Source: a virus. Taken from it: a stretch of 64,000 nt of DNA. Both the position numbers and the translations under genes were made by a program. Below the pieces are notes generated by a model. That model was not told where the DNA came from and did not search any database. It saw only the letters and a program-made list of their open reading frames with translations. This document shows, one piece after another, positions 2,931 to 63,931 of this stretch (position 1 is the first letter of the stretch; every line of letters begins with the position of its first letter). The DNA lies in the IMG/VR virus record IMGVR_UViG_3300037420_000246, positions 3,642 to 67,641 of that record; one strand, 5' to 3'.

Positions 2931-4301
2931 ATGCCAAAGAAATTAACACAAGAAGAATATCTAGCTAACTGCATTAACGCCCACGGCTCGACGTACAATT
3001 TAGAAAGAATTGTGTATCGCGGAACGATGTCGAAAGTTACTGTCGGTTGTCCAATCCATGATTGGTTTGAAGTGAAAGCCGGATCATTTATGAGAGGGAC
3101 TGGTTGCGCCAAGTGTGCTGCAGATAAGCGGGGTCTTAACAGACGACTCTCAGAGGGAGAATTCTTATCGCGGAGTGTCGCGCGGCATGGACAAGACTAC
3201 GGATACCAATTTGTAAACTACGTGAAGACGGATGTTAAGGTCAAGATTCTCTGCAATCGCTGCGAATGCACCTTCGAGATGACGCCAGAGTGTCATATGG
3301 CAGGACAAGGCTGTCGTGATTGTGGATACGAGAAGAATGGCTTGAATAAGCGCAGCAAGTTTGAAGAATTCGTCAAAGCCTCGCGTGAACATCACGGACA
3401 AAAGTTCAATTATGATGGTGTTGATTGGAGAGGAAATAAACAATCTATTGAGTTGTTTTGCCCTGTCCATCAAGAATATTTCACGACTACGCCAGCACTG
3501 CACGCGAAAGGAGCGGACTGCCCTAAATGCGCTAAACAACGAGGTGGTCTGAAGAACCGCAGTAATACCGAGAAGTTTGTCAAAGATGGAACTGAGAAGT
3601 TTGGAACACGATTTGACTACTCTGAAGTGGACTACATCAAAAGCAATCTTAAAGTGAAGATTCGTTGTGTTACGCATAATAAGTGGCTTTCTGTGACTCC
3701 GAATATGCATCTAGCAGGTTTTGGAGGTTGTGCGGATTGCGCTAAAGAAGCCACGAGTGAGCGTTGTAAGAAGTCAACGGAGCGTTTTGTCCTTGACGCC
3801 ACTAAGGAGCACGGTTCTCGGTATGGCTATGATCGTTCCATTTACAACGGTGCGTACAACAAAGTAGAAATTCATTGCAGAGAGCACGGCTATTTCTGGC
3901 AGAGCGCTGGCGCTCACATAGCAGGCCGAGGTTGCTCTAAATGTGGTAACAACGGGTATAAAGTAAACAAATCTGGGTATCTTTATGTTCTATACGATGG
4001 TGAATTAACTAAGGTTGGCATTACAAACAGGAACCCTGAAATCCGTTGCAAGTTTATTGCTAAGAAGTCTGAACGCCCATTCGAAGTTTTGAAGTTTTAC
4101 CACTTCGATGACGGCGGAGTTCCGTTGAGTCTTGAAACAAAACTGCTGAGTGAGTTGTGGCAAACATATAAGTCTCCAACAGAGAAATTTTCAGGATACA
4201 CCGAGTGCTTTTACCATGTTGACCAAGCCGCCCTACTAAACCGAATTGAATCACTAATCAAAGAGCAACATAGCTCTTACTCCGCTTCACCAGAAGCATA
4301 A
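2931..4301 (+). CDS. Homing-endonuclease-like protein: four zinc-ribbon repeats + C-terminal T5orf172/GIY-YIG-like domain
   Basis: Four ~60-aa repeats each ending G-x-G-C-x-[KD]-C-[AG]; C-terminal GYLYVLYDGELTKVGIT motif resembling GIY-YIG/T5orf172; inserted between tail tube and chaperone genes with its own flanking hairpins. Confidence 0.6.
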   Translation: MPKKLTQEEYLANCINAHGSTYNLERIVYRGTMSKVTVGCPIHDWFEVKAGSFMRGTGCAKCAADKRGLNRRLSEGEFLSRSVARHGQDYGYQFVNYVKTDVKVKILCNRCECTFEMTPECHMAGQGCRDCGYEKNGLNKRSKFEEFVKASREHHGQKFNYDGVDWRGNKQSIELFCPVHQEYFTTTPALHAKGADCPKCAKQRGGLKNRSNTEKFVKDGTEKFGTRFDYSEVDYIKSNLKVKIRCVTHNKWLSVTPNMHLAGFGGCADCAKEATSERCKKSTERFVLDATKEHGSRYGYDRSIYNGAYNKVEIHCREHGYFWQSAGAHIAGRGCSKCGNNGYKVNKSGYLYVLYDGELTKVGITNRNPEIRCKFIAKKSERPFEVLKFYHFDDGGVPLSLETKLLSELWQTYKSPTEKFSGYTECFYHVDQAALLNRIESLIKEQHSSYSASPEA

Positions 4302-5229: not shown

Positions 5230-8200
5230 ATGGCACTAGAGGCAAGCTCACTACAAGTCGTGGTTTCCGGGTCGGGAATCGAGGCGACAACTAAACAACT
5301 TAACGACCTCGCAGCGGCTGGCGAGAAAGCCGAAAAGAGTACAACTAAGCTTGCTCAATCCTCTAAGGATAGTTCCAAAGCCCAAGTAGATGCTGCCCAA
5401 CAAGCTGCCTCTCAGTACAACGCCATCATTGATATGATGACGGAGAAATCCAACACATATTATGCCGACAAAGCTGCCAAAGCTGCTATTGCTGCTCAGC
5501 AGGAGCTTTACGATGGCATGGTAATGATGGATAAGTTGCGTGCCGGTGCTGAAGGTTATTACGCCGATCAGGCGGCCAAGCGAGAGAAAGACCATCAAGA
5601 TGTATTGGCGAAACAGCAAGCTCAGAAGAACGCTGCTGAGGCACGCTATGCTGCTGAACAAGAGCTTGCCAATCGCATGAATGCTGCCTTCGATAAGCGG
5701 CAAGCTCAGACTGAAGCTATGGCGATTAATGCCAAATTGGATGCTGACACAAAAGCTCTGAAAGCCGATGGAGATGCGTTCACAGCTATGCTTAAGACGC
5801 AAGCTGAAAAAGTTGGCTTGACTACTAAAGAACTCCGCGAATATAACGCAGAACAGCTTCGTACTAAAGCAGCACAGCTTGGACTTATGCAGGCAGGCAG
5901 TGAGTCCAAGGATAAAATTGACGGTTATATCAACACCATCAAGAATGCAAAAGGCCCGCACGAGTCCTTTAACCTCCTCACCGCAGGCTCTGCACGCGAA
6001 CTGATGGTGTTGACTCACGAGCTTAGCCAAGGGCAGTTTCAGCGCTTTGGTGGCTCTCTTATCGTGTTGGCAGAACGTATTAACTTCTTGCCTAGCGTGC
6101 TTGAAAAAGCTGGTGCTTTTGCAGCAAGCCTTGGAGTGAGTTTGGGAGTGCTTGTTGCTGCTGTGGCTGCTGTTGTTGCAGTGGTGGGTACAGCAATATG
6201 GACATTCACTAAGAGTGGTACCGCACTGAAAGAAATGCGCAATGAAGTGATTTTGACAGGTCACTCAATCGGTGTTACAGGCGATCAACTGTATGACATG
6301 GCTAACAAGATTGGCGAGGCTACAGGCAAGTTTGGTGCTGCTCGTGAAGCTGTTATCCAACTGGCATCCACTGGCAAATTCACTGCTGACCAAATCAAGT
6401 TGATTACTGAAGCTGCTGTAGGTCTTGAAAAGTATGGTGGTGTTGCAATTGACAACACAATCAAGCAATTCGAAAAGCTTGCTGCTGAGCCGATTAAAGG
6501 CGCTCAGCGTGGATTCAAAGGTGTGTCTGAAGCAGCAATGGAGCTTGATAAGCAGCTTCATTTCCTCACTCCACAAATGCTGGATGAAATTATCCATTTG
6601 GAGCGTATTGGAGATGCAGCAGGGGCATCCAAGAAAGCAATTGGTAGTTTGGCCGAAGAAGAGAAAAAGCGTGTTCAGGAGCTTAAGAACAACCTTACTC
6701 CTATTGGCGTCCTGTTTGACACCATTGCCGAGAAGGCTTCTAAGATGTGGAATAACGTATTCCATAAGAAGTCGCTGACAGAGCAACTGGAAGATGCCAA
6801 GGACAATCTCGCTCAGATTCAAGGTGTGAATGGTGTACATCCTGAACAAACCCACCAAGCCAATGCTATTGCAGAAGTGGCTAGGCTTGAAAAGAAAATC
6901 AGGGATCAAGCTGAGAAAGAAAAGCAAGAGCAGCACAACAAAGAGGTTGCTCGCACAGCAGAATTGGCGCTTATCCATCGCCGTACTCTGCTTGATATGG
7001 GCAAGGATGAGGATACTCTAACAGCACAAACTGCGCGCGATGCAGCAGACCGTGCAGCGATTAAGGCAGCAGGGCTTAAGTCTGAACTATTCTCTGCTGA
7101 AGCAGATGCCGAAGCAATGGCAATCATTGAGAAGAAATACAAGCAGAAAGTTACACCAACTCCCGGCCTTGGTATGTCCAAGGTGAATTCGCGTATCGCT
7201 GAATTGCAAATGGAGTTTGAGAAGGCTTCTTATTTCGCAGATAAGGAAATGAAGCTGGAGCAAGACAAGGCTAAGCATCATGAAGTGTCTGCCCTCAAAC
7301 TTTATAACGATCAGCAGAAGTATTTCAATGATCGACAGAAACTGATTGATGATACAGAGGCAAAAGAGATTGCTGCCACTAACCTATATGACCACGGTGC
7401 GAAGAACAAGGACAAGCTGGCAGAAGAGGCTGCAACCAAACGTTTTGAAATTGAGAAGCGCTACGACATGCTGCGAGGAAAACTTGCTGCTGATCGAGAC
7501 GCCGCCGACACTGCATTGGAACGTGCAAACAAAACTGCCGAAGACAACCGGGAAGAAATGTATGTCAAAGGCACTCAAACTATCAATGCTGAGACAAAAG
7601 CCCTTCAAGACAAGATCGCTGGCTACAATCTGATCCCTGAAGCCATCCGTAAGGCTGGCATCAGTGAGAAACAGATGCAGGACTATTTCACTCAGGCTGA
7701 GATTGACAACATCCAAGAGCGCATTGATGCTCTGAAGCAGTTCGATGGGGTTGACGGCACAATGATGGCGGCTGAAATCGCTCGTCTGAATGCTCGGAAG
7801 AATGCTTTGGATGACAAGCGCAAGGCTCAGAAGGCTTGGGAGGATGTGCAGGCTGGGAATGCTGCCGCCCTTAACACCCCAGCAGCAATGAAAGCCAACG
7901 CTGCTGAACAAGTGAAACTGTGGAAAGACGCTGGCAACGAGATTCAGAAAGCGCTTACACAAGCTTTTGGTGAATCTGGTAAAGCTGCTGGTGAAATGTT
8001 TAAAGCATTCTCGGAAGGCCAAGCTAATCAAATCGATTTGACACAGAAAGTTGCTGAAGCTAACAGGCGCACCGACCTCTCAAAAATTGAGCAAACACAG
8101 CTTATCACAGCCCTGCAAAATCAGCAAGAGCAGAATCAGTTGAACATGTATGGCAACATGGCGAATGCTGCATCACAGTTTTTTGACCATCAGTCTAAGG

Positions 8201-11043
8201 GCTACAAAGTGATGCAGACGGTTTCGCAAGCATACCACTTGGCTGAAATGGCCCAAGCGCTTGCTTCGATTCCTGTAAAACTGGCTGCTGGTGCTGCAAC
8301 AATGTTTGCACAATCTGGCTTTGGTGGCTTTGCCGGTGTGGCTGCAATGACTGCTCTTGTTGCGGGCTTTGGTGTGGCTATCAGTGGGGGTGGCAGCAAA
8401 CCTCCTTCTGCGGCTGACCGTCAAGCTGCGCAAGGCACTGGTAGTATTCTTGGGGATGACAAAGCTAAGAGCGATAGTATTGCCCACTCCATCTCCGTCC
8501 TTGAAAAAAATAGTGGTTTGGGGCTGGCGCAAGGCAACGAAATGGTTGGGTATCTGAAGAATGTTTCGGATAACATTTCAAGTTTTGCTGCCTTGGTTGT
8601 CCGTACAACAGGCATTACAGGCAATCTGGCAGACACCACTAAAGGCGGTGCTGCAAGTTTTGCAAGTTCTGCCCTTGGTACGACACTCATAATGGGGCCA
8701 ATCACTGAGATTCTGAACAAACTCTCTGGTGGTTTTATTGGAAACGCAATTGGTAAAATTGCTAACTCTATCTTTGGTGGCAATGTACATACAATTGACA
8801 CTGGCTTCACGTTAGGTAAAACCTCTGTTGCGGATGTGATGGCAAATGGTGTAAATGCTAGTCAGTACACAGACACAAAAACGGATGGTGGATGGTTCCA
8901 TAGCGATAAGTATAACACCAGCCTAACCTCCCTCGGCCAACAAGCAAACGATCAGTTTGCAAAGATTATTGTCGGGATGTCTGACACCATCACTGCTGCT
9001 GCAAAAACTCTTGGGGTTTGCACTGATGATTTTACAGCACATCTGCAAAGCTTTGTTGTAGACATTGGAAACATCTCGCTTAAAGGGCTTTCTGGAGACG
9101 AGATTCAAAAGCAACTGCAAGCTGTATTCAGTAAGCTTGGTGACGACATGGCGCAATATGGTCTGTCTGGATTCGATAAGTTTCAGAAGGTTGGTGAAGG
9201 GTATCTTGAGACGATTGCTCGTGTTGCTAACGACTTCATGCAAGTGAAGGATGTCTTTGCTGTTCTTGGCAAGTCTCTCACTGCTGTAGGTGTTGATGCA
9301 GCAAATGTATCCGAGGGTTTGATTAGTGCAGCAGGTAGTGTAGAAGCTCTTACGAAGAATACAAAAACCTTCGTTGACGGCTTCCTCACTAACGCTGAGA
9401 AGATTGCCCCAATTGCCAAGTCTGTTGATGCTGAATTGGCGAAATGGAATCTGTCTTGGGTGCAAACTCGTGAGCAATTTAAGCAAGTGGTGCTTGGCCT
9501 TGATCTTACAACCGAAGCAGGGCAAAAGGAATACGCAGCACTGATTAATCTTGCGGGGGCATTCGCCCAAGTGCATGACGCTATTGTAGACACTACAATG
9601 ACGGCCCAACAGATTGCTGACCAACGTAAGAGTTTGCAAGACCAGTATGACCAACTGACGATGACCTCTGCTCAATTACATGAGAAAGAACGTAATGCTA
9701 TAGACGATAGTAACAAGGCGCTCTATGACAATATATATCTTCTTACACAACAAGCACAGGCCATCAAAGATATGCAGGATGGCGCAACTACGAGTCTTGC
9801 TAATGTGGATAATGCTTTCAATGTGTTCCAAAAAGCTGTAGATCGACAGAAAACTGTGCTGAAGAATGCTTTCGACGTTCAGATGAAGCAGATTGACGAC
9901 AAGATTACTCTTGAAACCAATGCTAACCAGAAGCTGAAAGCACTGGCATCTAGCCTTCAATCTACGCTTGATGGTATGAAGCCATCTGTGCAAGCAGCCG
10001 ATGTAACAAGGGCGCTGCGAGTTCAAGCACAGCAGCAGCTTCGAGATGCTTTGACGTTGTTTAAGTCTGGTGTTGTTCCTGATGCAGACAGCCTGAAGAA
10101 TCCTCTGAGTGTTGCTGCAAGCGACTCTACGGCGATGTTCTCAAGTGCTGAGGATTACCAACGTGATTTCTACCGCACTCAGAACACCATCTCTGATTTG
10201 GCGAAATACAGCAACGACGCCGCATCAACAAGCGACAAAATCCTGCAAACTCTTAACGATCAGAAGACTGCTGCACAAGCTGCATATGACGCTGAGATTA
10301 AGAGCTTAGATGACACAGTTGCTAAGGCTCAAGAGCAAATTGACATCCTGAAAGGGCAGTCTACAACGCTGTTGAGCATCGATCAAGCATTGAACGCCCT
10401 CGGCTTGGCTATCAGCGAAGCTAACAAGAATCCTCTTGTCAGTGGACAATCTGCTATCTCTCAAGCTTATCAAACTTCTTTGGGGCGTGCTCCAGATCAA
10501 GCAGGGTTGGACTTCTGGAAGAATCAAATCACAAAAGGGACGCCTATCGAAGACATCCTGAATGCGATTAACAATTCTCCTGAAGCTCAAGTGCAGAAAT
10601 TGTACCAGTCGTTGTTCAATCGTCCTGCTGATGCTGGTGGATTGGGATTCTGGACACAACAGATGAACAATGGCGTGGACATTTCGGCTATCAAGCAAGC
10701 GATGATGTCGAGTGATGAGTATCATGACTTAAAGAACAAGATTCCTTCGTTTGACAAAGGGACGAATGAACTCCCTGAAGACATGCTTGCTATGGTTCAT
10801 AAAGGTGAGCGAATCGTGCCCGCAAGTGATAACTTGGAATTGATGCAACGTCTGAAGAGTCCTCAATCGAATGCTGAAGCCTTGAGCAACGAAGTGGTGA
10901 ATCTGCGTGAAGAGATTGCTTCCCTTAAAGAGACAATCCGTGCGGGGGATGTTGCTAATGTTCAGACATCGAAGGAAATCGTAAAAGTGTTGAAGCGCTG
11001 GGACGTAGATGGTCAGCCTGAAACTCGTGATGTATCAGCGTAA
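5230..11043 (+). CDS. Tail tape measure protein (1937 aa)
   Basis: Very long ORF after G/GT; Ala/Lys/Glu/Gln-rich coiled-coil N-terminal third, hydrophobic Gly-rich segment (AFAASLGVSLGVLVAAVAAVVAVVG), C-terminal tandem ~60-aa repeats. Confidence 0.9.
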   Translation: MALEASSLQVVVSGSGIEATTKQLNDLAAAGEKAEKSTTKLAQSSKDSSKAQVDAAQQAASQYNAIIDMMTEKSNTYYADKAAKAAIAAQQELYDGMVMMDKLRAGAEGYYADQAAKREKDHQDVLAKQQAQKNAAEARYAAEQELANRMNAAFDKRQAQTEAMAINAKLDADTKALKADGDAFTAMLKTQAEKVGLTTKELREYNAEQLRTKAAQLGLMQAGSESKDKIDGYINTIKNAKGPHESFNLLTAGSARELMVLTHELSQGQFQRFGGSLIVLAERINFLPSVLEKAGAFAASLGVSLGVLVAAVAAVVAVVGTAIWTFTKSGTALKEMRNEVILTGHSIGVTGDQLYDMANKIGEATGKFGAAREAVIQLASTGKFTADQIKLITEAAVGLEKYGGVAIDNTIKQFEKLAAEPIKGAQRGFKGVSEAAMELDKQLHFLTPQMLDEIIHLERIGDAAGASKKAIGSLAEEEKKRVQELKNNLTPIGVLFDTIAEKASKMWNNVFHKKSLTEQLEDAKDNLAQIQGVNGVHPEQTHQANAIAEVARLEKKIRDQAEKEKQEQHNKEVARTAELALIHRRTLLDMGKDEDTLTAQTARDAADRAAIKAAGLKSELFSAEADAEAMAIIEKKYKQKVTPTPGLGMSKVNSRIAELQMEFEKASYFADKEMKLEQDKAKHHEVSALKLYNDQQKYFNDRQKLIDDTEAKEIAATNLYDHGAKNKDKLAEEAATKRFEIEKRYDMLRGKLAADRDAADTALERANKTAEDNREEMYVKGTQTINAETKALQDKIAGYNLIPEAIRKAGISEKQMQDYFTQAEIDNIQERIDALKQFDGVDGTMMAAEIARLNARKNALDDKRKAQKAWEDVQAGNAAALNTPAAMKANAAEQVKLWKDAGNEIQKALTQAFGESGKAAGEMFKAFSEGQANQIDLTQKVAEANRRTDLSKIEQTQLITALQNQQEQNQLNMYGNMANAASQFFDHQSKGYKVMQTVSQAYHLAEMAQALASIPVKLAAGAATMFAQSGFGGFAGVAAMTALVAGFGVAISGGGSKPPSAADRQAAQGTGSILGDDKAKSDSIAHSISVLEKNSGLGLAQGNEMVGYLKNVSDNISSFAALVVRTTGITGNLADTTKGGAASFASSALGTTLIMGPITEILNKLSGGFIGNAIGKIANSIFGGNVHTIDTGFTLGKTSVADVMANGVNASQYTDTKTDGGWFHSDKYNTSLTSLGQQANDQFAKIIVGMSDTITAAAKTLGVCTDDFTAHLQSFVVDIGNISLKGLSGDEIQKQLQAVFSKLGDDMAQYGLSGFDKFQKVGEGYLETIARVANDFMQVKDVFAVLGKSLTAVGVDAANVSEGLISAAGSVEALTKNTKTFVDGFLTNAEKIAPIAKSVDAELAKWNLSWVQTREQFKQVVLGLDLTTEAGQKEYAALINLAGAFAQVHDAIVDTTMTAQQIADQRKSLQDQYDQLTMTSAQLHEKERNAIDDSNKALYDNIYLLTQQAQAIKDMQDGATTSLANVDNAFNVFQKAVDRQKTVLKNAFDVQMKQIDDKITLETNANQKLKALASSLQSTLDGMKPSVQAADVTRALRVQAQQQLRDALTLFKSGVVPDADSLKNPLSVAASDSTAMFSSAEDYQRDFYRTQNTISDLAKYSNDAASTSDKILQTLNDQKTAAQAAYDAEIKSLDDTVAKAQEQIDILKGQSTTLLSIDQALNALGLAISEANKNPLVSGQSAISQAYQTSLGRAPDQAGLDFWKNQITKGTPIEDILNAINNSPEAQVQKLYQSLFNRPADAGGLGFWTQQMNNGVDISAIKQAMMSSDEYHDLKNKIPSFDKGTNELPEDMLAMVHKGERIVPASDNLELMQRLKSPQSNAEALSNEVVNLREEIASLKETIRAGDVANVQTSKEIVKVLKRWDVDGQPETRDVSA

Positions 11044-29470: not shown

Positions 29471-31543
29471 TTATGGTTTAATTACCAGTTTCTCTGCTTC
29501 AGCGACGTAGTAGTCATAGTCAATGTCTCCAACAAAATCTTCCACATCATTACAGGGTTTTACAAACCAGTCAGCGTCAATAGAAAGCCTGCGTTCTTCG
29601 CCACCGGCTTCCAACGGAGGCATAATTTTAACAAGTTTACCACCTGACTTACACGGATAGTAACGGCAAATATTCTGCTGCTGGATTTCCGTACCATCCT
29701 CCATTACAAGCACAAGACGGCTGCTGCGTGGCACTTTTGTGCGAAGCATGAAATCAAACTTCTCTGTGTGATTTGTAATAAACTCACGGATATCAACCCC
29801 ATGAAGCATGTGCGCTTCTGCTGCCATTGGAATCACCAGTGACGAATGGTTTTTGTGCCAACCCAAATCCTTGTATTCGTAAGCACCTTTGTTCTTCGTT
29901 TTACCGTCTGTGTATAAGGCAATGTAGTTGTTGACATCCCTGATATACATTTTGTCGTACTCAGCAAACTCTAGTTGCAAACCAACCTGCTTCTGCCAGT
30001 CTTCACAAATCTTGTCGTAATGCTCTCGTGTATTACGTTTGAGGGCGACAGTAACACCATCCGTATTCACCTGAATCAGTTTCAAACCTTCAATCGTCAG
30101 CAGCTTTTCAGCCAGCAGGCAAAGCGACAACTGACCATTGATCGTGATTTTCATGGTGTACATCGGGTCAAAGAACGGGCTGTATTGGTTGTTTGAGTCG
30201 CCATACACACCATTCAGCGCCAGTTTAAGCATCGCGTTCTCAGCCGTTTTCTTGCCATACGATTTGCGTTGTTCGTAAACGTCTTTGTAAATCTCGCAAA
30301 ACTTCTTCGACAAGTGTTCGGGATAGACGTTATTAGCAATTGCAATGTTCGGGTACATTGAGCTAACGTCAGCGTCTACAATCTGATAAGTGCTCGTCTG
30401 CTTCGCAATCTTGCTATTCAAACTACCGTGAATTCCACCAGTACCAAAGTCAAAACGAAACCCATCAACTACAACATTCAAATTTTCCGCTACACGATAA
30501 CACGCCCAATATGAATATTGTGTTTCCCCTTTCTTCTTTGCCTTCAATTCCACCTTGTCAAACCACCCGCAAGGATGTTCACGTTTGAATTGGTCGTATT
30601 CTGCCCTAGTAGGTTCAGCTTTCCATTTCTTCCGCTTCACAACCATTTCAGCGTATTTCGCTACATCGCCAAGTTTGTGTTCTTCAATATCGGAAAACAC
30701 ACCTTTGGTTTCACGAATAACCTGCTTCGAAAGCCAGTCTTTGACAGCAATGAATTCAGGACGTTTGAAATCGTAATACGAGAAAAGACAATCTTTAATA
30801 CGAATACTGTCTCGTTTCGTCTGATTCATCTTACGCTTACCATCTACGATTTTATACACCGGAATCTTGCTCTCTTCCAGTCGCATAATGAAGTAGTCCT
30901 TGCCGATCTTCGTATCATTGTGGTTCATGAAGTCACGACCGTATTTCGCGGTAAGCTGCTCACGAAACTCCACTTGTGTAATGCTGTGTTTGTAGAAGGC
31001 TAACGTCATCTTAACGTCATGAGCATTATACTTAATCAGTGTGTCAATCTGTTCACTGTTTAATTCCATTCCAACAGGAAACGGAAGGTCTTCAATGTTC
31101 TTCTCGCGCATATTGAATTCCAGCATTTTCAAGCTGGTCATCTTCGCTTTGTTATCGAAGTGGTGAACCTTGAACAAATCGATTTGCTTTACATGACGAT
31201 CTTCAGCTTTCACAGTGTTGGCGAACTCACCCTTCATGCTCTCGATCTGTTCTTGTGCAAACTTATACACTCGCTTTGCAATCGTCTCTCCCTTCACAGG
31301 AAGCCTATCACGAATGGCAAGAAGTTTGTGGAGAACAGGATAGTCAAAGTTCAGATTGTTGAAACCAACAAGGAAGTCATCTTCATTTGCAATATAATCT
31401 AGGCAAGCAAAAATCCTGTTTGTTTCATTCTTGCGAGCACTCACCTCAAAAGTGTTGGCGAATTTTCCGTCTTCACGGATAACGCTGAAAGTGAATACGT
31501 TCGGGTAAGTCTCGATGTCAAATACCCATTTCCTATTCCCCAC
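29471..31543 (-). CDS. DNA polymerase, family B, with 3'-5' exonuclease domain
   Basis: Exo I FDIETYPN, Exo III YNAHDVKMT, polymerase motif A DADVSSMYPNIAIANNV (DxxSLYPS), motif B KLALNGVYGDSNN (KxxxNSxYG), motif C VNTDGV (DTD). Confidence 0.85.
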   Translation of the reverse strand: MGNRKWVFDIETYPNVFTFSVIREDGKFANTFEVSARKNETNRIFACLDYIANEDDFLVGFNNLNFDYPVLHKLLAIRDRLPVKGETIAKRVYKFAQEQIESMKGEFANTVKAEDRHVKQIDLFKVHHFDNKAKMTSLKMLEFNMREKNIEDLPFPVGMELNSEQIDTLIKYNAHDVKMTLAFYKHSITQVEFREQLTAKYGRDFMNHNDTKIGKDYFIMRLEESKIPVYKIVDGKRKMNQTKRDSIRIKDCLFSYYDFKRPEFIAVKDWLSKQVIRETKGVFSDIEEHKLGDVAKYAEMVVKRKKWKAEPTRAEYDQFKREHPCGWFDKVELKAKKKGETQYSYWACYRVAENLNVVVDGFRFDFGTGGIHGSLNSKIAKQTSTYQIVDADVSSMYPNIAIANNVYPEHLSKKFCEIYKDVYEQRKSYGKKTAENAMLKLALNGVYGDSNNQYSPFFDPMYTMKITINGQLSLCLLAEKLLTIEGLKLIQVNTDGVTVALKRNTREHYDKICEDWQKQVGLQLEFAEYDKMYIRDVNNYIALYTDGKTKNKGAYEYKDLGWHKNHSSLVIPMAAEAHMLHGVDIREFITNHTEKFDFMLRTKVPRSSRLVLVMEDGTEIQQQNICRYYPCKSGGKLVKIMPPLEAGGEERRLSIDADWFVKPCNDVEDFVGDIDYDYYVAEAEKLVIKP

Positions 31544-33344: not shown

Positions 33345-34604
33345 TTACTGTATTTTACTTGGCAGGTTGTTGTGTGTCAAGGGGTTAGTGTCAACATTGT
33401 TGAATAGCCACTCGTCTACAAAGTCTACTACATCTTGGTACAGTTCTGGGTAGGTAGCTTCGGTCATAAAACCCTCAACCTCTTGCGAAAACCTAGGAAA
33501 AGTGGCTTTTATGGCTTTCTCCACCTCCCATGCTTGCCGACCTGTCATCTGGAAAATCTCCGTCTTACCCAATCTAAAGCCAGCCCTCCTAAGATTTCTA
33601 TCGTGATCCGTCAAGCGCCTGTCCGGTGCATTTGAAATCCCGTACCCTGTAAAACCGTGCCTGCCTTCTACGAGCAAGATGTACAAGTGCCCATCTTTGT
33701 TTGTATCAAACCCACCCTTAGCACAACTGGGACACCCACTGCAATTGTAGAGGAAAGCGTCAGCCCGAGCCAGCCAGTTGCCATGCTCCTCGCAGTGCAT
33801 CACGCATCTGCTGTCAAAACCTGAATACTCCCCATCCCAATCTACAAACTTGTACTTCAAGCCTCGTTCTGCAATCGTCTTTGTTATTAGATGTTGCCTT
33901 TGTTCGGGCGTCCATCTAAAGTGTGGTCCACACCGACACGATTTTGCCCCTCGCTTTAATGACTCTACGTGCTGCTCAAAAACTCCTGTGCAAACGCCTG
34001 CCTTCACAAAATCATCATTGCTGCACACGGAGCATGTAACATTCCAATAATTTCTTTTCTTTCCAGACCCTCGTAGACTTCTAGAGAAGGTAGTCCCTTC
34101 AGGGTACAACCCGGCCTCTAAAAACATAATAATCATGTCGTCATCAGATTTTCTGTAGCGATCCCCAGTAACCTTTGCTGCACAACTTGGACAGCCAACA
34201 TCCAACAAAAAGTTTGTTACAGTGGTTGAAGCCCAGCAAAACTGACAAGTCTGACACTCCAACTTCAGCTTAGTGGCAACCCCTTTGTATTCCTCTGCGT
34301 ACCCTATAAGTCTATACCCTTTGTCTTCTGCTGATCTTTGGACCTTCACCAACGTCTGTTTTTCTGTCAACCTTGCAAACTTAGAACATCCGCAAGGTTC
34401 AATGTTACGATCAATTATCGATTTTGGAGTTAGATAAATTCCATCACCGAACATTTCAGGGTCTTCACTACAAGTGTGGCACTTCACTTTGTAAATCCGA
34501 TCTTTCTTACCCCGGCGGTAGCCATCAAATGCTAGTATTTCTAACTGACCGTCCTTGCCATAACGTTTTCCTATAAATTTTGTATCATCAAATGGAGGAC
34601 TCAA
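33345..34604 (-). CDS. Homing-endonuclease-like protein: zinc-ribbon repeats + T5orf172/GIY-YIG-like domain (paralogue of 2931..4301)
   Basis: Repeated GCPSCA / GCSGCPSCA Cys modules; C-terminal GHLYILLVEGRHGFTGYGIS motif; same architecture as the + strand gene at 2931. Confidence 0.6.
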   Translation of the reverse strand: MSPPFDDTKFIGKRYGKDGQLEILAFDGYRRGKKDRIYKVKCHTCSEDPEMFGDGIYLTPKSIIDRNIEPCGCSKFARLTEKQTLVKVQRSAEDKGYRLIGYAEEYKGVATKLKLECQTCQFCWASTTVTNFLLDVGCPSCAAKVTGDRYRKSDDDMIIMFLEAGLYPEGTTFSRSLRGSGKKRNYWNVTCSVCSNDDFVKAGVCTGVFEQHVESLKRGAKSCRCGPHFRWTPEQRQHLITKTIAERGLKYKFVDWDGEYSGFDSRCVMHCEEHGNWLARADAFLYNCSGCPSCAKGGFDTNKDGHLYILLVEGRHGFTGYGISNAPDRRLTDHDRNLRRAGFRLGKTEIFQMTGRQAWEVEKAIKATFPRFSQEVEGFMTEATYPELYQDVVDFVDEWLFNNVDTNPLTHNNLPSKIQ

Positions 34605-34847: not shown

Positions 34848-36506
34848 CTAAAACGTAGGAGCTTCGTTATCTACAAGAACAACTTCCCCGGTTTCATCGT
34901 CAATATAGAATTCATCGCAGATGCCCAAATAGCCATGTGCCCGGTTTTTCATAACAGTTAGCCTCACATTACCACGGCTCTTGTCAGGGCGAATTTGAGG
35001 CTCAAGTCCAAGCACAGTCCAAGCAAGCTGCTCAAGACAAGAAGAACTGCGAAGTGCCTCCTTAGTAATAGGAACCCAAAAAGGTTCTGATTCCTTACCT
35101 TTGGGCGGTTTGAAGCCTTCTGCGATAGAGCGGTTAAGATGCGACACGAGAATTACACAAACATCACTAGCAGCGCAGAATGCCGCTAACTTGGTCATCA
35201 CCATATCCAGTTCACGGCGCTCATCTGTAATTCCTGCATCCCCAAGAATCATGCCGATGTGATCCAGCAGTAGGTACTTGACTTTGTTGGCGTGAACAAA
35301 ACTCTTAATTTTGTTCATGAGTGTGTCAAGTGGCATAGAGCCGAAATGGTCGAGCAAAAACACTTCTCGCTCTTTCGTCACCCAGTTATATGCATCTTGA
35401 ATCTCTTCTTGGGAGGCGCAGGCCAGCGGGTTCTCTTTGAAACGGTTGTAGTTCACCTTCAGCCTCATTGACATAAGCCGTTGGATAGACTCTTTAGCTG
35501 TTTCTTCCAACATCATCATTCCGATTCGTTCGCCAGCTTCAAGGAATCTATACATAAAATGGCTTGTGACGAGGCTTTTTCCAACATTCGAAGGCGCAGT
35601 GAATACAACAAGCTCCCTTGGTCGGAAGCCGTGTAGTTTGTGATCTAGCTTAGGGAAAACTCCGGTATATACGCCCTCTACTCGTGGTGCCAGAATTTCG
35701 TCTAGTTCAATACTACTTGCCGTAATGATCTTCTCAGCAGTGTAAGGCTTTTTACCAAACTGCACCAGTTTTGCCAACTCATCCGATTTTCCGGCTTGGA
35801 GCATGTCGGACGCATCTTTGAATCCGTCTGGATAATCAACCACTGTCAATTCCATATCGGACAGCACAGCGGCTACATCCTCTCGTGCCTCAAGTCCGCG
35901 CTTAATTTTCTTAAGACGCTCTACAGGTGTAGCACAATCTGAATCAAATGCGATACAGCAGGCTTCAAATGATCGAATAAACGCCTCATTGTGAATTGTG
36001 GCTTCTTGTGCGTTAGCTGTGCCCATTGGGACACTGACGACGAACGGCTCCAAGTCTTCAAACTTAGTCCCTTTAACTTGGTCCCGCATGGCTTGGTAGA
36101 GACTTAAACAGTCCAATTCACCTTCCACATAAGTTAGTGAAGACCTTTTACGTTTAATTCCTTCTGCAACATCTTGACCAAACAATTTATTTGTGATCTG
36201 GACTGATGCCACAACACTCCAATGACCCTTCTCCCCCTTGCTTTTACTAAGGTCCATCTTTTTGAAGCCGCGAACGACTCCTTTTTGGTCGTATGATGGG
36301 AAGTACAGAGCTTCAAGCGTGCGCCCGTCACGCTCAGATACAGCACCCCTAACACCGAATTTTTCGCACGTTTCTTTACGAATCTTCCGGTCTGGAATAT
36401 CCACAAACGGAAGTTCCAACACATCCTTCAAAGTTTCTTTCGGCACGAATTCAGTCATTTGTTTTGTCTGTCCTTTCCAATAACCCATCAACCCTCCCCA
36501 CACCAC
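34848..36506 (-). CDS. Bifunctional DNA primase (TOPRIM) / DnaB-like replicative helicase
   Basis: TOPRIM acidic motifs (YVEGELDCLSLYQ; IAFDSDCATP) N-terminal; Walker A APSNVGKS, Walker B LLLDHIG, VSHLNRS helicase motifs C-terminal. Confidence 0.8.
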   Translation of the reverse strand: MVWGGLMGYWKGQTKQMTEFVPKETLKDVLELPFVDIPDRKIRKETCEKFGVRGAVSERDGRTLEALYFPSYDQKGVVRGFKKMDLSKSKGEKGHWSVVASVQITNKLFGQDVAEGIKRKRSSLTYVEGELDCLSLYQAMRDQVKGTKFEDLEPFVVSVPMGTANAQEATIHNEAFIRSFEACCIAFDSDCATPVERLKKIKRGLEAREDVAAVLSDMELTVVDYPDGFKDASDMLQAGKSDELAKLVQFGKKPYTAEKIITASSIELDEILAPRVEGVYTGVFPKLDHKLHGFRPRELVVFTAPSNVGKSLVTSHFMYRFLEAGERIGMMMLEETAKESIQRLMSMRLKVNYNRFKENPLACASQEEIQDAYNWVTKEREVFLLDHFGSMPLDTLMNKIKSFVHANKVKYLLLDHIGMILGDAGITDERRELDMVMTKLAAFCAASDVCVILVSHLNRSIAEGFKPPKGKESEPFWVPITKEALRSSSCLEQLAWTVLGLEPQIRPDKSRGNVRLTVMKNRAHGYLGICDEFYIDDETGEVVLVDNEAPTF

Positions 36507-44731: not shown

Positions 44732-44819
44732 ACAAATCCTTGCGTGGGTTGTTGTAGCAGCCTACGCAGTTTATTTAGTAGTATTGATTTCAAATAACTC
44801 TGGAGGGCTTGCGGCATGA
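44721..44819 (+). CDS. Small membrane peptide (32 aa)
   Basis: Not in track; overlaps both neighbours (ATGAATCTTAA and ATGA); MNLKQILAWVVVAAYAVYLVVLISNNSGGLAA has one TM helix. Confidence 0.35.
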   Translation: MNLKQILAWVVVAAYAVYLVVLISNNSGGLAA

Positions 44820-45259: not shown

Positions 45260-45444
45260 AGAAGCACTTCTTCCTTATTCTGGCAGTGCTGCTGCCTGTA
45301 TTTATCTTTCTTGTTGGTGCATTCACTGTCGCTTCGTTCGATATTCGAGAATGGGAACCGTGGGGAAGGCTAATTGTTGGGGCGTACATGCTGATAGCAG
45401 TTATTGTGTGCGGTTTTGCATGGTGGAACACAGGACAAAGTTGA
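45256..45444 (+). CDS. Small two-TM membrane protein
   Basis: 62 aa; FFLILAVLLPVFIFLVGAF and LIVGAYMLIAVIVCGFAWW. Confidence 0.5.
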   Translation: MKKHFFLILAVLLPVFIFLVGAFTVASFDIREWEPWGRLIVGAYMLIAVIVCGFAWWNTGQS

Positions 45445-45497
45445 GATTCGATTTTTATAATTCAATATAAATCCAACTTCGATCCCCTCTTGAAACA

Positions 45498-45527
45498 TTT
45501 CAAACCTGTGTCACCAACGAGGGGGCT
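45498..45527 (+). repeat. Conserved 30-nt motif copy 1 (ATTTCAAACCTGTGTCACCAACGAGGGGGC)
   Basis: 28/30 identical to 53225-53254; opens a ~450-bp non-coding island. Confidence 0.6.
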
Positions 45528-45900
45528 TCTCCTTTTCCTGTATAATTCCCCTCCGCACGGCTTTTCTGCCCTGTGCAAATCCCCACAAAAGCCCTTCCAT
45601 ACTTGGCGCAGCGAGCCTGCTTTCGTTGAAAGCAGGCGAGCGTATCCCTGCCTATTTCCAGCATGAAAAATCGCCTTGAAGCATTGTTTTCCAATAGAAA
45701 CAATTCTTATAGGCAAAGCTTTCCCCTCCCCATCTAAAGGGATGTCTTGTGGTAATAATGACAATAATGTGACATCAGACAAGCGATAGCAGCCACAGCC
45801 GTGAGAGGCTACGGATACAGCATATGTCAGTGGTGGTAGTTCACATTGGGGCAGGAATGCCCTGTTAGAAAACCTTGTGTTACGTCATAGGAGCCTCCAG

Positions 45901-46212
45901 ATGGACAGCAAAGAGAACGTCATTCCCATTACGCGAGCAGGAAAGGAAACGGCTGTGAGCCGTCATTACACACCCTATCATACGGACGCAGAAGTGCCAT
46001 ACTGCTATGGCGTGGATGCCATAACAGGGGAGTGCGGGTGGTTTTGCTTTAAGGAAACCTCGGTCGGCCGCGTGGCGACAACGCCACTTTTCGAAGAGTG
46101 GTTTGAACTACTGTTTTATATGAATCAGGAGGGCTACACGTTCTCGCGTGTAAGGGAGAGGATGTTCGAGAAGAGGCCAGCAGTGCCGCCCCAAGAGGCA
46201 CAAGGAGAATAG
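45901..46212 (+). CDS. Hypothetical protein
   Basis: ATG 45901 with SD AGGAGCC; 103 aa. Confidence 0.5.
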   Translation: MDSKENVIPITRAGKETAVSRHYTPYHTDAEVPYCYGVDAITGECGWFCFKETSVGRVATTPLFEEWFELLFYMNQEGYTFSRVRERMFEKRPAVPPQEAQGE

Positions 46213-46236
46213 ATGTATGGGCAGGTGTCATACCTG

Positions 46237-46308
46237 CTACGACAGAGCTTGTCGCAAAATCTACGACAGGGGTTGTCGCTACAGGTGTGACAGAGCTTGT
46301 CGCAAATA
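46237..46308 (+). repeat. Three tandem 24-bp iterons (nnnnGACAGrGsTTGTCGCnnnnn)
   Basis: CTACGACAGAGCTTGTCGCAAAAT / CTACGACAGGGGTTGTCGCTACAG / GTGTGACAGAGCTTGTCGCAAATA; further GGGTTGTC half-site at 46322. Confidence 0.6.
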
Positions 46309-46684
46309 TGCAACAAAATATGGGTTGTCTGGTCATATCGTTTGCTGTGACATTCGGTTACTTTGTGTAGACACGATAACCCATTCATAAGAATCTTACA
46401 AGCACATTCTAGAGGGAGTTACACATGTGAGATTGTTGCATTGCCACATTCCATACAGTTGTCTTGTTGACCATAGGTAACTTCCCATAGCATGATGTAC
46501 AGCAAACGGCAATAGATTTTAGAGCGCACGGTTAAAATTTTTCTTGTGTTGCTGGGAATGTTGTTTTATAGTGTCACTCATGGACAGCAAGCAGAGACAA
46601 GGTGGAATGTCAAGATTGCCCTAGCTGCCCTGCTAGGTGGCTGTACAACAAACTAACTGAATACAAACTTAAGGAGAATTGAAC

Positions 46685-47365
46685 ATGAAAGACGCTACGA
46701 TGACCGCCGTAATCCCTCGCTTTGCACCAATTTCGAACAAGGCAGTGATTTTCCTTCCTGAGACGAAGGAAAACGGCAGGATTGACATGATTACGGAAGG
46801 GCAACGTATTACCGTTGGCATCGACTACTACATGGCTACAGAGCCCCTCAGTGCCGAAGATGCCAAGAAAGTGGCGCTGGCATTTGCACAACACGAGCAC
46901 ATCAATCCTGACATGCTCGTTATTCGTCAGCGTCTGCCCAAGACGATGAATAAACGTCCTAGCCGTCTGAATGACGCTAACCTTGTTCTTGTCCAACAGG
47001 AGCAACCTAAACAAGAAGCTGCACCAAGCTCGCTCGCGGAATTCGCGCAGGCACTACAGGATGAGCACAATCGCCGGCAGGGCGACAAGCAAGAAGGGCA
47101 GAAAGCCACTGCGCATCAGCCAGAAGGCGCTGTTGTAGAAACTAAAACCAAGAGGAAGTACAACAAGAAGACTGCTGAGGAACGTTCACGCCGTAGCGCT
47201 GCTGCCATGAAGCGTTACCAAGAAGAACTTGCCCGCGTAAGCTCGCAGTCTCCTACGTTGATGGAACCTGTTGCAACCGATGCACCAAAGCCTGTCGTTG
47301 ACCAAGCGATTCTTGATCTGGCTCAGGCTTTGGCCCGTATCCTGAAGGTGCCCGGTGCCGTCTGA
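46685..47365 (+). CDS. Hypothetical DNA-binding-like protein (basic helical region)
   Basis: ATG 46685, SD AAGGAGA; 226 aa; Gln/Ala-rich linker then basic segment KTKRKYNKKTAEERSRRSAAAMKRYQEEL. Confidence 0.5.
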   Translation: MKDATMTAVIPRFAPISNKAVIFLPETKENGRIDMITEGQRITVGIDYYMATEPLSAEDAKKVALAFAQHEHINPDMLVIRQRLPKTMNKRPSRLNDANLVLVQQEQPKQEAAPSSLAEFAQALQDEHNRRQGDKQEGQKATAHQPEGAVVETKTKRKYNKKTAEERSRRSAAAMKRYQEELARVSSQSPTLMEPVATDAPKPVVDQAILDLAQALARILKVPGAV

Positions 47366-47388: not shown

Positions 47389-47416
47389 GCCCGCCTTTGT
47401 GCGGGCTTTTTCTTTT
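47389..47416 (+). terminator. Rho-independent terminator
   Basis: GCCCGC-CTTTGT-GCGGGC followed by TTTTTCTTTT. Confidence 0.65.
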
Positions 47417-62798: not shown

Positions 62799-63115
62799 GA
62801 ATGCACATCAAATACCCGCTTTAAGCGGGGTTTCTATTATCTATGATTATCGTTGCACTCTTGCACCACAAAAATTAGTCTTACTCGCTGGCGCTCGCGC
62901 TTAAAGCATTGCACACAAACCAATCTTATCTATTCGTTGCACTGCGCGAGCCGTAGGCGAGAGGAGGGCAACACAGAGCGAAGCGATGGTTATCTGTTCC
63001 TCTGTGGAGGCGAAGCCGTAGCAGAGATAAGGTAAGAATGATTGTCTTAAGGATTGAACGTCCTTAAGTTATCTTTTCTCTTATCTATTCTCTTATCTGT
63101 TAGTACGGTAAAAAA

Positions 63116-63184
63116 GCGGGGTTTTGCACCTCTCTAATGCGGGGTTATCAACCTCTCTAAAGCGGGGTTTTGCACTCCTACGAC
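63116..63184 (+). repeat. Tandem 23-bp direct repeats GCGGGGTT(T/A)T(G/C)CA(C)CTCTCTAA(T/A)
   Basis: GCGGGG at 63116, 63139, 63162 (period 23) plus palindromic copies at 62817-62836 and 63197-63216. Confidence 0.55.
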
Positions 63185-63229
63185 ATATCCTAATACCCGC
63201 TTTAAGCGGGGTTTATGCATTCTGTAAGC

Positions 63230-63258
63230 TTGACAAATAGCATTGTTCATGTTACAAT
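63230..63258 (+). promoter_or_regulatory. Consensus sigma70 promoter TTGACA-N17-TACAAT
   Basis: TTGACA 63230-63235, 17-nt spacer, TACAAT 63253-63258; 30 nt upstream of ATG 63289. Confidence 0.6.
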
Positions 63259-63288
63259 GTTTCTGTAGTAAATCAATCAAGGAAAATT

Positions 63289-63474
63289 ATGCAACTTAAT
63301 CTTAACCCGGAAGTTGCCATCTGGATAGATGCGAACAGAGGCGAACTGTCTAGGCAAAAGTTTATTCTAACTCTTGTCAAGAAAATGATGTTGCAGGATA
63401 CTCAATCTACTAAGGATAACAATGGAAAAAACAATCTCCCCAATGGAGCTATCCACGCTCCTGTGCAAGAGTAA
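63289..63474 (+). CDS. Small DNA-binding regulator, ribbon-helix-helix-like
   Basis: 61 aa; N-terminal beta strand QLNLNPEV then two helices (AIWIDANRGELSRQKFILTLVKKMM); first gene after consensus promoter. Confidence 0.45.
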   Translation: MQLNLNPEVAIWIDANRGELSRQKFILTLVKKMMLQDTQSTKDNNGKNNLPNGAIHAPVQE

Positions 63475-63931
63475 TGATTCTTGTGTCAATCTGTCACTCG
63501 CAGAATTCCGCGTGCTGACATACCTCCTAGCCTGCGCCAATACCAAAGATGGTGAAGGATATAAATGCTGGCCCAGTACAGACGCTATATCCGAACATAC
63601 AGGCATACACATCAAAACAGTTGAGAAAGTAAGAAAGACACTCGTTGACAACGGCTGGATGCAGTATAAATCCGGCAAAGGTAAGGGAAACTGCAACACT
63701 TATTATGTTAATGGGTTTAAGATTGTCGAGTGCTACATTAAATCCGGCAATGAACGGCCAAAGGGTGCGATTGCTGCTGCAAACCTAGAGGCACCTAAGA
63801 AGGTACGAGACCGCAACATTAAGGGCTTGAAGCAAGGTAAGAGCACGCCAGTGCAGGAGAAGCCTGTAGAACCTCCTAAGCCAGCAAATAATGCGTATGA
63901 CCATTATGATAGCGACGAACCGCCGTTCTAG
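63422..63931 (+). CDS. Winged-helix DNA-binding protein, replication-initiator/organiser-like N-terminal domain
   Basis: LSLAEFRVLTYLLACANTKDGEGYKCWPSTDAISEHTGIHIKTVEKVRKTLVDNGWM wHTH-like; basic linker; acidic C-terminus DSDEPPF; overlaps upstream gene by 53 nt. Confidence 0.45.
   Translation: MEKTISPMELSTLLCKSNDSCVNLSLAEFRVLTYLLACANTKDGEGYKCWPSTDAISEHTGIHIKTVEKVRKTLVDNGWMQYKSGKGKGNCNTYYVNGFKIVECYIKSGNERPKGAIAAANLEAPKKVRDRNIKGLKQGKSTPVQEKPVEPPKPANNAYDHYDSDEPPF

Follow-up and report, generated by a model that had tools for sequence, protein, structure and literature searches.

The operators OR1-3 and OL1-3 of phage lambda are sets of three imperfect palindromes of about 16-17 bp, spaced 23-24 bp from centre to centre in the early region of the phage. 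The same geometry is found in the stretch of viral DNA analysed here, the 64,000 nt from position 3,642 to position 67,641 of IMG/VR virus record IMGVR_UViG_3300037420_000246 (the window, numbered from its first letter). In the window three head-to-tail 24-mers with palindromic cores, at 46237-46308 (the array), are located between two genes that are named 45901 and 46685 after their first positions. The lambda operators overlap the PR/PRM and PL promoters beside the repressor genes, whereas neither an overlapping promoter nor a repressor gene was found for the array, which lies 24 nt past a stop codon. Iterons in the lambda origin and in theta-type plasmids are also regularly spaced tandem repeats, and those of lambda are palindromic too. 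The array differs from them in that it has no AT-rich region, no DnaA or integration host factor (IHF) boxes, no adjoining initiator gene and no conservation.

Other described systems act at the RNA level. The RNase III sites of phage T7 (R sites), repetitive extragenic palindromic (REP) elements and bacterial interspersed mosaic elements (BIMEs) resemble the array in being extended imperfect hairpins on the transcribed strand, here the presumed one, and the array likewise lies between early cistrons and after a stop codon; palindromes in tandem are likewise known from REP elements. However, the array shows no sequence or Rfam match to these elements, its palindromic units are 15 nt long compared to about 35 nt in REP, and it is present once per genome instead of being dispersed. 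The hairpin predicted for 46213-46312 does reach, between cistrons, the extent of double-stranded RNA typical of RNase III substrates, at least 20 bp and mostly uninterrupted. Stem-loops of the ompA type stabilize a message at its start. In the gene family of 46685 a leader stem begins, in most relatives, 2-3 nt past the predicted transcription start, and the arms of the array copy this stem. Yet the array is upstream of the 46685 promoter, so it does not form the 5' end of the 46685 mRNA, and a stabilizing function of the leader stem is itself putative. Below we suggest, tentatively, that the array forms clustered RNA hairpins on the plus strand, specific to its lineage and located where the 45901 unit ends, and that it was derived from the leader stem of the family.

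Sequence and predicted folding of the array

The original prediction, which considered a replication origin or an operator array, was correct about the repeat itself: both Tandem Repeats Finder (TRF) and a repeat search recovered three head-to-tail 24-mers at 46237-46308. TRF reports this as a single array at 46236-46306, with a period of 24, 3.0 copies and a score of 86, the second highest in the window. Units 2 and 3 (Table 1) are each 79% identical to unit 1, there are no indels, and the 24-nt period is exact. The core of a unit is (C/T)GACAG-N3-TTGTCGC, an imperfect palindrome CGACA-N5-TGTCG with an inner G.T; in unit 3 the first arm base is a T, which gives a U.G pair. The centres read AGC, GGG and AGC. 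Nine of the 24 positions vary among the copies, and none of these falls within the 12 arm positions (GACAG and TTGTCGC; hypergeometric p=1.7e-4). Such invariance of the arms, combined with variation in the centre and spacers, indicates that the arms are under constraint.

The motif GACAG-N3-TTGTC occurs three times in the 64 kb, always in the array, against 0.18 expected, and 0 of 100 shuffles reached three. The 16-nt core CGACAGRGSTTGTCGC has no further match in the window at up to two mismatches, and no further array site with at most one mismatch is present in the window plus the 7.3 kb beyond it, which together make up the approximately 71 kb of readable sequence from this phage. Elsewhere in the window, single half-sites show no enrichment. 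The relaxed pattern CGACAG-N3-TTGTCG, with up to two mismatches, gives nine additional scattered sites, none of them at a promoter. Among the extra half-sites that had been listed, GGGTTGTC at 46322-46329 and CAGGTGT at 46222 are present, while the second CAGGTGT starts at 46282 and not at 46281.

The position of the array is different from what had been proposed. It does not adjoin gene 46685: its end is separated by 377 nt from the ATG of that gene and by 236 nt from the -35 element of the promoter, and it starts 24 nt past the stop codon of gene 45901-46212. Its spacing, described as two helical turns, corresponds to about 2.3 turns at 24 bp. The description of the region as free of open reading frames (ORFs) holds insofar as the JGI and Logan callers placed no gene there in more than 10 contigs, but mechanical ORFs do exist, for example one of 57 aa at 46217-46390.

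The array is preceded by a flank palindrome, CAGGTGTCATACCTG, for which the window otherwise holds just a one-mismatch match. The strain variant L082 differs at 46229 and 46231, which turns the flank into the perfect palindrome CAGGTGTGACACCTG. Flank palindrome and array together form an extended dyad (46213-46312), for which a hairpin with about 36 pairs in runs of 12, 8, 7 and 7 is predicted. The plus strand of this segment folds at -42.4 kcal/mol (z -5.3), 6 kcal/mol better than the minus strand at -36.5 kcal/mol (z -4.8). Energies of the extended fold range from -42 to -46 kcal/mol (z -4.0 to -5.3), and the left flank, which is outside the tandem repeat, takes part. Wherever a palindrome is imperfect, a G.T pair is present on the plus strand; this applies to the flank palindrome, to the innermost pair of every unit and to the first pair of unit 3. 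A second hairpin follows downstream (Table 1), and its block GACACGATAACCCAT is kept in the alignment with relatives. A scan detected no intrinsic terminator at the array, where unit 3 is followed by CAAAUAUGCAAC. With Rfam 15 no match was obtained in the window at gathering thresholds, and 45300-46800 gave only chance-level hairpins with E of at least 0.3. No tRNA or tmRNA is present.

Comparison with related loci

Twenty-four syntenic relatives were compared, comprising eight Logan/JGI/ENA loci and 16 IMG/VR loci, with up to 2.5 kb read upstream of the 46685 homologue (about 1.3 kb in the eight). None of the 24 carries the array, and a lack of such conservation was among the refuting outcomes named beforehand. 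GACA-N5-TGTC or a comparable tandem array is absent upstream in all of them. A pattern of two adjacent units matched seven IMG/VR contigs, none of which came from the relatives, whose contigs extend up to 89.8 kb.

Only one relative, L013, retains the upstream gene. In L013 the stop codon of this gene is followed by GGTATGTGTGTGGCACGAATGCAACA, while in the alignment the window shows GATGTATGGGCAGG, then about 78 extra nt, and then AAATATGCAACA. These extra nucleotides suggest that the array is an insertion or a local expansion. The array is identical in six strain haplotypes of the same phage, an uninformative result with only about 0.9 variable sites expected in 72 nt. In L013, a hairpin GACAGACAA-CAAGGGG-TTTGTCTGTC (L013:4274-4300; -12.5 kcal/mol) is located upstream of the 45901 homologue; its arms and loop resemble unit 2 of the array (GACAGGGGTTGTC).

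Database searches outside the syntenic set returned little. INPHARED, searched for near-identity and at the protein level, gave no match to the region or to either flanking protein. IMG/VR, queried with the single 46685 protein and with an exact 30-mer, gave none either, and a search for homologues of the 45901 protein recovered that protein alone. Adjacent GACAG-N3-TTGTC pairs were found at 7, 45 and 65 loci in viral, genome and metagenome collections, respectively. All are unrelated tandem repeats from diverse taxa, and apart from one trivial repeat translation they share no protein with the window. Because a pattern of two close copies selects tandem repeats by design, these loci are uninformative on function.

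The promoter and leader stem of the 46685 family

In every relative the 46685 homologue is preceded by a stretch without gene calls, 411-1173 nt long in the loci examined. Within it, most of the 24 relatives have a TTGAC[ATG]-17-TAnnnT promoter with an A/T tract, located 108-204 nt ahead of the ATG; the -35 hexamers of L019 and L020 are weaker. The right third of the 472-nt "island" that includes the array thus consists of the corresponding promoter (Table 1) and a long 5' leader, with transcription predicted to begin near 46579. The -35 element in the window is TTGTGT compared to TTGAC[ATG] in 22 of the 24 relatives, which places the lineage bearing the array among those with the weakest -35.

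In most relatives a 7-bp leader stem, UCGACAG/CUGUCGA, starts 2-3 nt past the predicted transcription start. This stem, predicted by RNAalifold, is carried by 21 relatives aligned with the window and closes a purine-rich loop of about 20-35 nt (for example L161:2386-2452 and L018:4884-4950). In the seven-pair helix, pairing is seen in 89% of the cells, and at four of the pairs both sides have changed (A-U/G.U/G-C; G-C/C-G/A-U). Covariation reaches 0.29, compared to 0.16 for shuffles (0/500), and pairing is destroyed when the partner columns are shifted. The variable length of the loop points to an RNA stem rather than to a DNA operator for a dimer. The stem corresponds to no Rfam family. It is degenerate in the window (Table 1) and also in the closest relatives L009 and L013, and the other promoters of the window have short leaders of 20-35 nt that lack it. 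The leader has also accommodated unrelated repeats. Inside the leader of the 46685 homologue of L168 (L168:2407-2451) there are 2.8 copies of a perfect 16-nt tandem repeat (ATACGTAAGTAACGTG), and L157 has about two copies; these expansions, unrelated to the array, suggest that slippage is active in this leader.

The arms of the array units, CGACAG/UUGUCG, are the same hexamers as those of the leader-stem arms, on the same strand. The likeness extends 2-3 nt before the 3' arm: units 1 and 3 have AGCTTGTCG compared to AGCTGTCGA in L161 and L165, and GGTTGTCG of unit 2 is identical to the leader of L159. CGACAG/CTGTCG is not a common word, with 27 sites on both strands of the window (128 kb) against 25 expected. 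From their sequence the units look like the leader stem with its loop removed, a likeness that was noticed post hoc and is to be taken as suggestive. A rough estimate, which is not a formal test, puts the probability of the arm match near 0.005 after about 20 possible motif comparisons.

Possible roles of the array

The constraint on the arms, their identity to the leader-stem arms and the position after gene 45901 can be brought together in the following scheme. The insertion or expansion of about 78 nt would have supplied three compact hairpin modules with arms CGACAG/UUGUCG, equivalent to the leader stem without its loop. With only 24 nt separating it from the stop codon of gene 45901, the array would become the 3' untranslated tail of the message from that gene and would act in cis as plus-strand RNA, folding either into three small stem-loops or into one hairpin of about 100 nt. 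By blocking an exonuclease or serving as an RNase III site, for example, such a structure might shield the upstream mRNA at its 3' end or set where that end lies. Alternatively, the units could provide extra binding sites for a factor that recognizes the leader stem. No intrinsic terminator was found between the promoter-like site at 45432 and the array, and the terminator of the 46685 unit has the same 24-nt offset from its stop codon.

Several points weigh against this scheme. Folded singly, the units give weak hairpins (-5 to -7.8 kcal/mol, z -0.9 to -2.3), and the minus strand folds well too. With three paralogous copies only, there is no covariation inside the array, and invariant arms would fit recognition of DNA by a protein just as well. 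The array has no Rfam match. Transcription across it is deduced from consensus promoter and terminator scans only, and the arm match, having been seen after the fact, remains suggestive. The degenerate leader stem of the window, with five of seven pairs, means that a shared factor is not guaranteed. A more specific version is that one sequence-specific RNA-binding factor recognizes both the loop-deleted units of the array and the leader stem. This could be the 46685 protein itself, which is a candidate because an SH3-like barrel and a bS21-like helix are both typical of ribosomal RNA binders. The array would then be a triple decoy or recruitment site on read-through early transcripts and the leader an autoregulatory operator, and a lineage with a decayed leader stem would have evolved a triple array upstream. 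We regard this version as a long shot.

The part of the original prediction that concerned an operator array fares better than the origin, and operator function is a real, if doubtful, possibility. A dimeric phage or host protein would bind the three dyad sites cooperatively. Occupied in this way, the array would serve as a transcriptional roadblock or insulator that separates the 46685 promoter from the 45901 unit, or would exert regulation from a distance. Three palindromes of 15-16 bp with an exact 24-bp period, having invariant arms and a free centre and spacers, show the pattern expected for half-site contacts, and the geometry equals that of the lambda operators. The decay of the 46685 -35 element to TTGTGT could mean that this promoter is regulated. 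The constraint on the arms and the geometry thus fit, but an overlapping promoter, a second site and a candidate binding protein are missing. No promoter-like site occurs within 46213-46330 on either strand, the nearest being at 46467 or 46544, which leaves 236 nt to the nearest -35. The lack of a second site with at most one mismatch, in the window or the 7.3 kb beyond, also argues against an operator, as does the finding that all palindrome imperfections are plus-strand G.T pairs. Furthermore, no helix-turn-helix (HTH), ribbon-helix-helix (RHH) or other DNA-binding protein was detected among the early genes scanned, save an HTH_36 protein that has its own repeats. That scan covered about 45 early proteins and gave only this HTH_36 protein (63422) and a weak PHROG 'transcriptional regulator' match at 44816, many small ORFs being unannotated.

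It is unlikely that the array is a functionless by-product of replication slippage that triplicated a short palindrome in a plastic non-coding leader. Its absence from every relative, its insertion-like appearance compared to L013, its restriction to a single locus and the unrelated tandem expansions in the leaders of L168 and L157 would all suit such an origin. However, the nine variable positions of the 24 avoid all 12 arm positions (p=1.7e-4), the period is unbroken by indels, and the arms match a stem that is conserved and covaries elsewhere in the family. A coding role is the least credible of the explanations. The 24-nt period equals eight codons, and a frame of 57 codons (46217-46390) is open for a cysteine-rich protein containing the repeats CYDRACRK, IYDRGCRY and RCDRACRK. 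Its translation would start from AAGGAG at 46202, with a Shine-Dalgarno sequence and spacing (AAGGAGAATAGATGTATG) closely like those of gene 46685 (AAGGAGAATTGAACATG). The codon-usage log-odds of this frame, -0.28 per codon, contrasts with +0.28 +/- 0.16 for the genes of the phage and +0.10 to +0.32 for small neighbours. The ORF has no homologue in relatives, remained uncalled by every pipeline in more than 10 contigs, and overlaps in its distal half with blocks that are conserved at the nucleotide level in relatives without such an ORF; AAGGAG is absent at the homologous site in L013. Other roles, such as in packaging or recombination, take the remaining probability.

A number of specific candidates were rejected. 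Hairpin promoters of the N4 type, with a 5-7-bp stem and a 3-nt loop, do not apply since the 1937-aa protein is a tape measure protein and not a virion RNA polymerase. The LexA, cAMP receptor protein (CRP) and lux-box sites gave no fit on inspection. An extension of 45901 by -1 frameshifting, for which the third frame scores +0.155 per codon, lacks a slippery heptamer and a start codon. The same phage encodes a serine recombinase of 220 aa with a Resolvase domain, about 4 kb past the right end of the window (L149:6597-7259, minus strand). A resolvase res site was discarded: the array is about 22 kb from the recombinase gene, the distance of TGTC...GACA between units is 19 bp compared to 25-34 bp, and in L149 no copy of the palindrome motif is present near the gene.

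The proposed replication origin

The proposal of an iteron-type origin, at which the three repeats would be bound by an initiator and the DNA beside them melted, is very improbable. In their regular spacing, at an exact 24-bp period, the three palindromes do recall the lambda origin with its four 19-bp iterons. Palindromes could in principle be bound by an O-like winged-helix protein of the phage (63422-63931), encoded 17 kb from the array, and the cumulative GC-skew minimum at 44 kb is about 2 kb from the array. However, this minimum coincides with divergent promoters and the switch in gene orientation, and the O-like gene adjoins 23-bp repeats of its own. The claim fails on conservation, on AT-rich and DnaA elements and on an initiator. 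The array is conserved in 0 of the 24 relatives; no 40-mer with at least 80% A+T is present within 700 bp, the nearest, 760 bp away at 45437, being a promoter, and the GC content around the array is 0.42-0.52; no DnaA box with at most one mismatch occurs at 36.4-48.4 kb; and there is no adjoining initiator gene, as 45901 and 46685 are without an initiator or DNA-binding signature.

If the phage has an iteron-type origin, the module at 63.07-63.93 kb is the better candidate, although its role could also be regulatory. It combines two tandem repeats, terminator-like hairpins, a consensus promoter and the gene of the O-like protein (Table 1), and it also has a 61-aa ORF (module 63069-63931, also 62807-63300). 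Approximately 1 kb of it, including the 23-nt repeats, is 80% identical in the 89-kb IMG/VR contig 3300037467_000583, where the flanks of the module are dissimilar. This contig is not among the seven that matched the palindrome-pair pattern.

Neighbouring genes and genome setting

Gene 45901 encodes a protein without Pfam or PHROG match, of which a homologue was found only in L013. For the 46685 protein, a confident structure model predicts the N-terminal SH3/Tudor-like barrel. Its linker carries the short conserved motifs NDANLVLV and PEGAVVQ, and the basic helix KRKYNKKTAEERSRRSAAAMKRYQEELAR weakly resembles the C-terminal helix of bS21 (E 0.007 against PDB sequences, 0.014 against the PHROG S21 family). 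The helix had been described as DNA-binding-like, but no DNA-binding fold is recognized and its resemblance is to bS21; the protein may bind RNA or the ribosome. Fifteen homologues with 33-60% identity were found (P0001-P0015), and an IMG/VR profile scan added 16 more loci. The gene is a widespread early one, and its product resembles an RNA binder.

A second long non-coding stretch is present at 45445-45876. It opens with an AT-rich promoter-like site, AGGACA-18-TATAAT (45432-45461). JGI calls a minus-strand ORF of 106 aa in it (45462-45782), which has no homologue in any relative, and short blocks such as GGCAAAGCTTTCCCCT from this stretch recur in the spacers of relatives. The hypervariable patch at 46386-46431 is flanked by hundreds of bases that are identical across contigs of several samples; recombination or diversifying change at this site could explain it.

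The window derives from an uncultured tailed phage from freshwater and contains, besides the tape measure, primase-helicase and DNA polymerase genes, many small early genes. The closest relatives of the polymerase, at 50-63% identity, are from Limnohabitans phage DC31, Curvibacter phage P26059A and Nitrincola phage 1M3-16, all phages of Comamonadaceae and relatives from freshwater or marine habitats. Among cultured phages, those of Limnohabitans and Curvibacter are the nearest known. DC31 is described as a long-tailed phage that forms clear plaques (PMC12195039). Gene orientation switches at about 44.1 kb, where two near-consensus divergent promoters are located and the cumulative GC-skew minimum falls; the array is 2.1 kb to the right of the switch, inside the rightward early block. 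Two genes of homing-type endonucleases, HNH-like and with a CapR domain (PHROG 681 and 559), are present at 2931-4301 and 33345-34604, one amid the tail genes and the other adjoining the primase-helicase gene.

Table 1. Positions of the array, its surroundings and other features of the window
Feature	Position	Strand	Description
Flank palindrome	46222-46236	+	15 nt, CAGGTGTCATACCTG; directly before unit 1
Repeat unit 1	46237-46260	+	CTACGACAGAGCTTGTCGCAAAAT; core 46240-46255; RNA hairpin -5.0 kcal/mol
Repeat unit 2	46261-46284	+	CTACGACAGGGGTTGTCGCTACAG; core 46264-46279; RNA hairpin -5.0 kcal/mol
Repeat unit 3	46285-46308	+	GTGTGACAGAGCTTGTCGCAAATA; core 46288-46303; RNA hairpin -7.8 kcal/mol
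Extended dyad (flank palindrome and array)	46213-46312	+	interrupted hairpin of about 100 nt; apex 46255-46263
Second hairpin	46320-46384	+	GGGTTGTC pairs with block GACACGATAACCCAT; inverted repeat and fold
Hypervariable patch	46386-46431		two haplotypes; about 14 differences in 46 nt including a 1-nt indel
Sigma-70-type promoter of 46685	46534-46572	+	A/T tract AAAATTTTT; -35 TTGTGT 46544-46549; 17-nt spacer; -10 TATAGT 46567-46572
Degenerate leader stem-loop	46581-46613	+	UGGACAG 46581-46587; AUGUCAA 46607-46613; 5/7 pairs
Upstream gene (45901)	45901-46212	+	103 aa; called in more than 10 contigs
Downstream gene (46685)	46685-47365	+	226 aa; SH3/Tudor-like N-terminal domain, disordered linker, basic helix
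Intrinsic terminator of the 46685 unit	47389-47406	+	GCCCGCCTTTGTGCGGGC then TTTTTCTTTT; 24 nt past the stop codon
Tape measure protein	5230-11043		1937 aa
DNA polymerase	29471-31543	-	
Primase-helicase	34848-36506	-	
12-nt repeat	63069-63098		2.5 copies
23-nt repeat	63113-63175		AAAGCGGGGTTTTGCACCTCTCT; 2.7 copies; TRF score 98
Terminator-like hairpin	63193; second copy 62812		ACCCGCTTTAAGCGGGGTTT
Promoter	63230-63258		TTGACA-17-TACAAT
O-like HTH_36 protein	63422-63931		169 aa; HTH_36 E 6e-13; PHROG replication initiation/O-like families

Conclusions

Nothing categorically new is seen in the array, which adds one instance to the intergenic palindromic repeats of phage early regions. Had it been an origin, it would have been a useful landmark in a group of freshwater phages that is uncultured, but the evidence speaks against this. 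The work has two by-products: a conserved promoter with a covarying stem at the mRNA start for a widespread early gene with an RNA-binder-like product, and a much better origin candidate at 63 kb, where a repeat array is combined with an O-like protein. If the array is indeed a cluster of RNA hairpins derived from the leader stem, it would be a small and clean case of a regulatory hairpin that was copied, shortened and multiplied in a phage leader, with selection visible on the stem arms alone.

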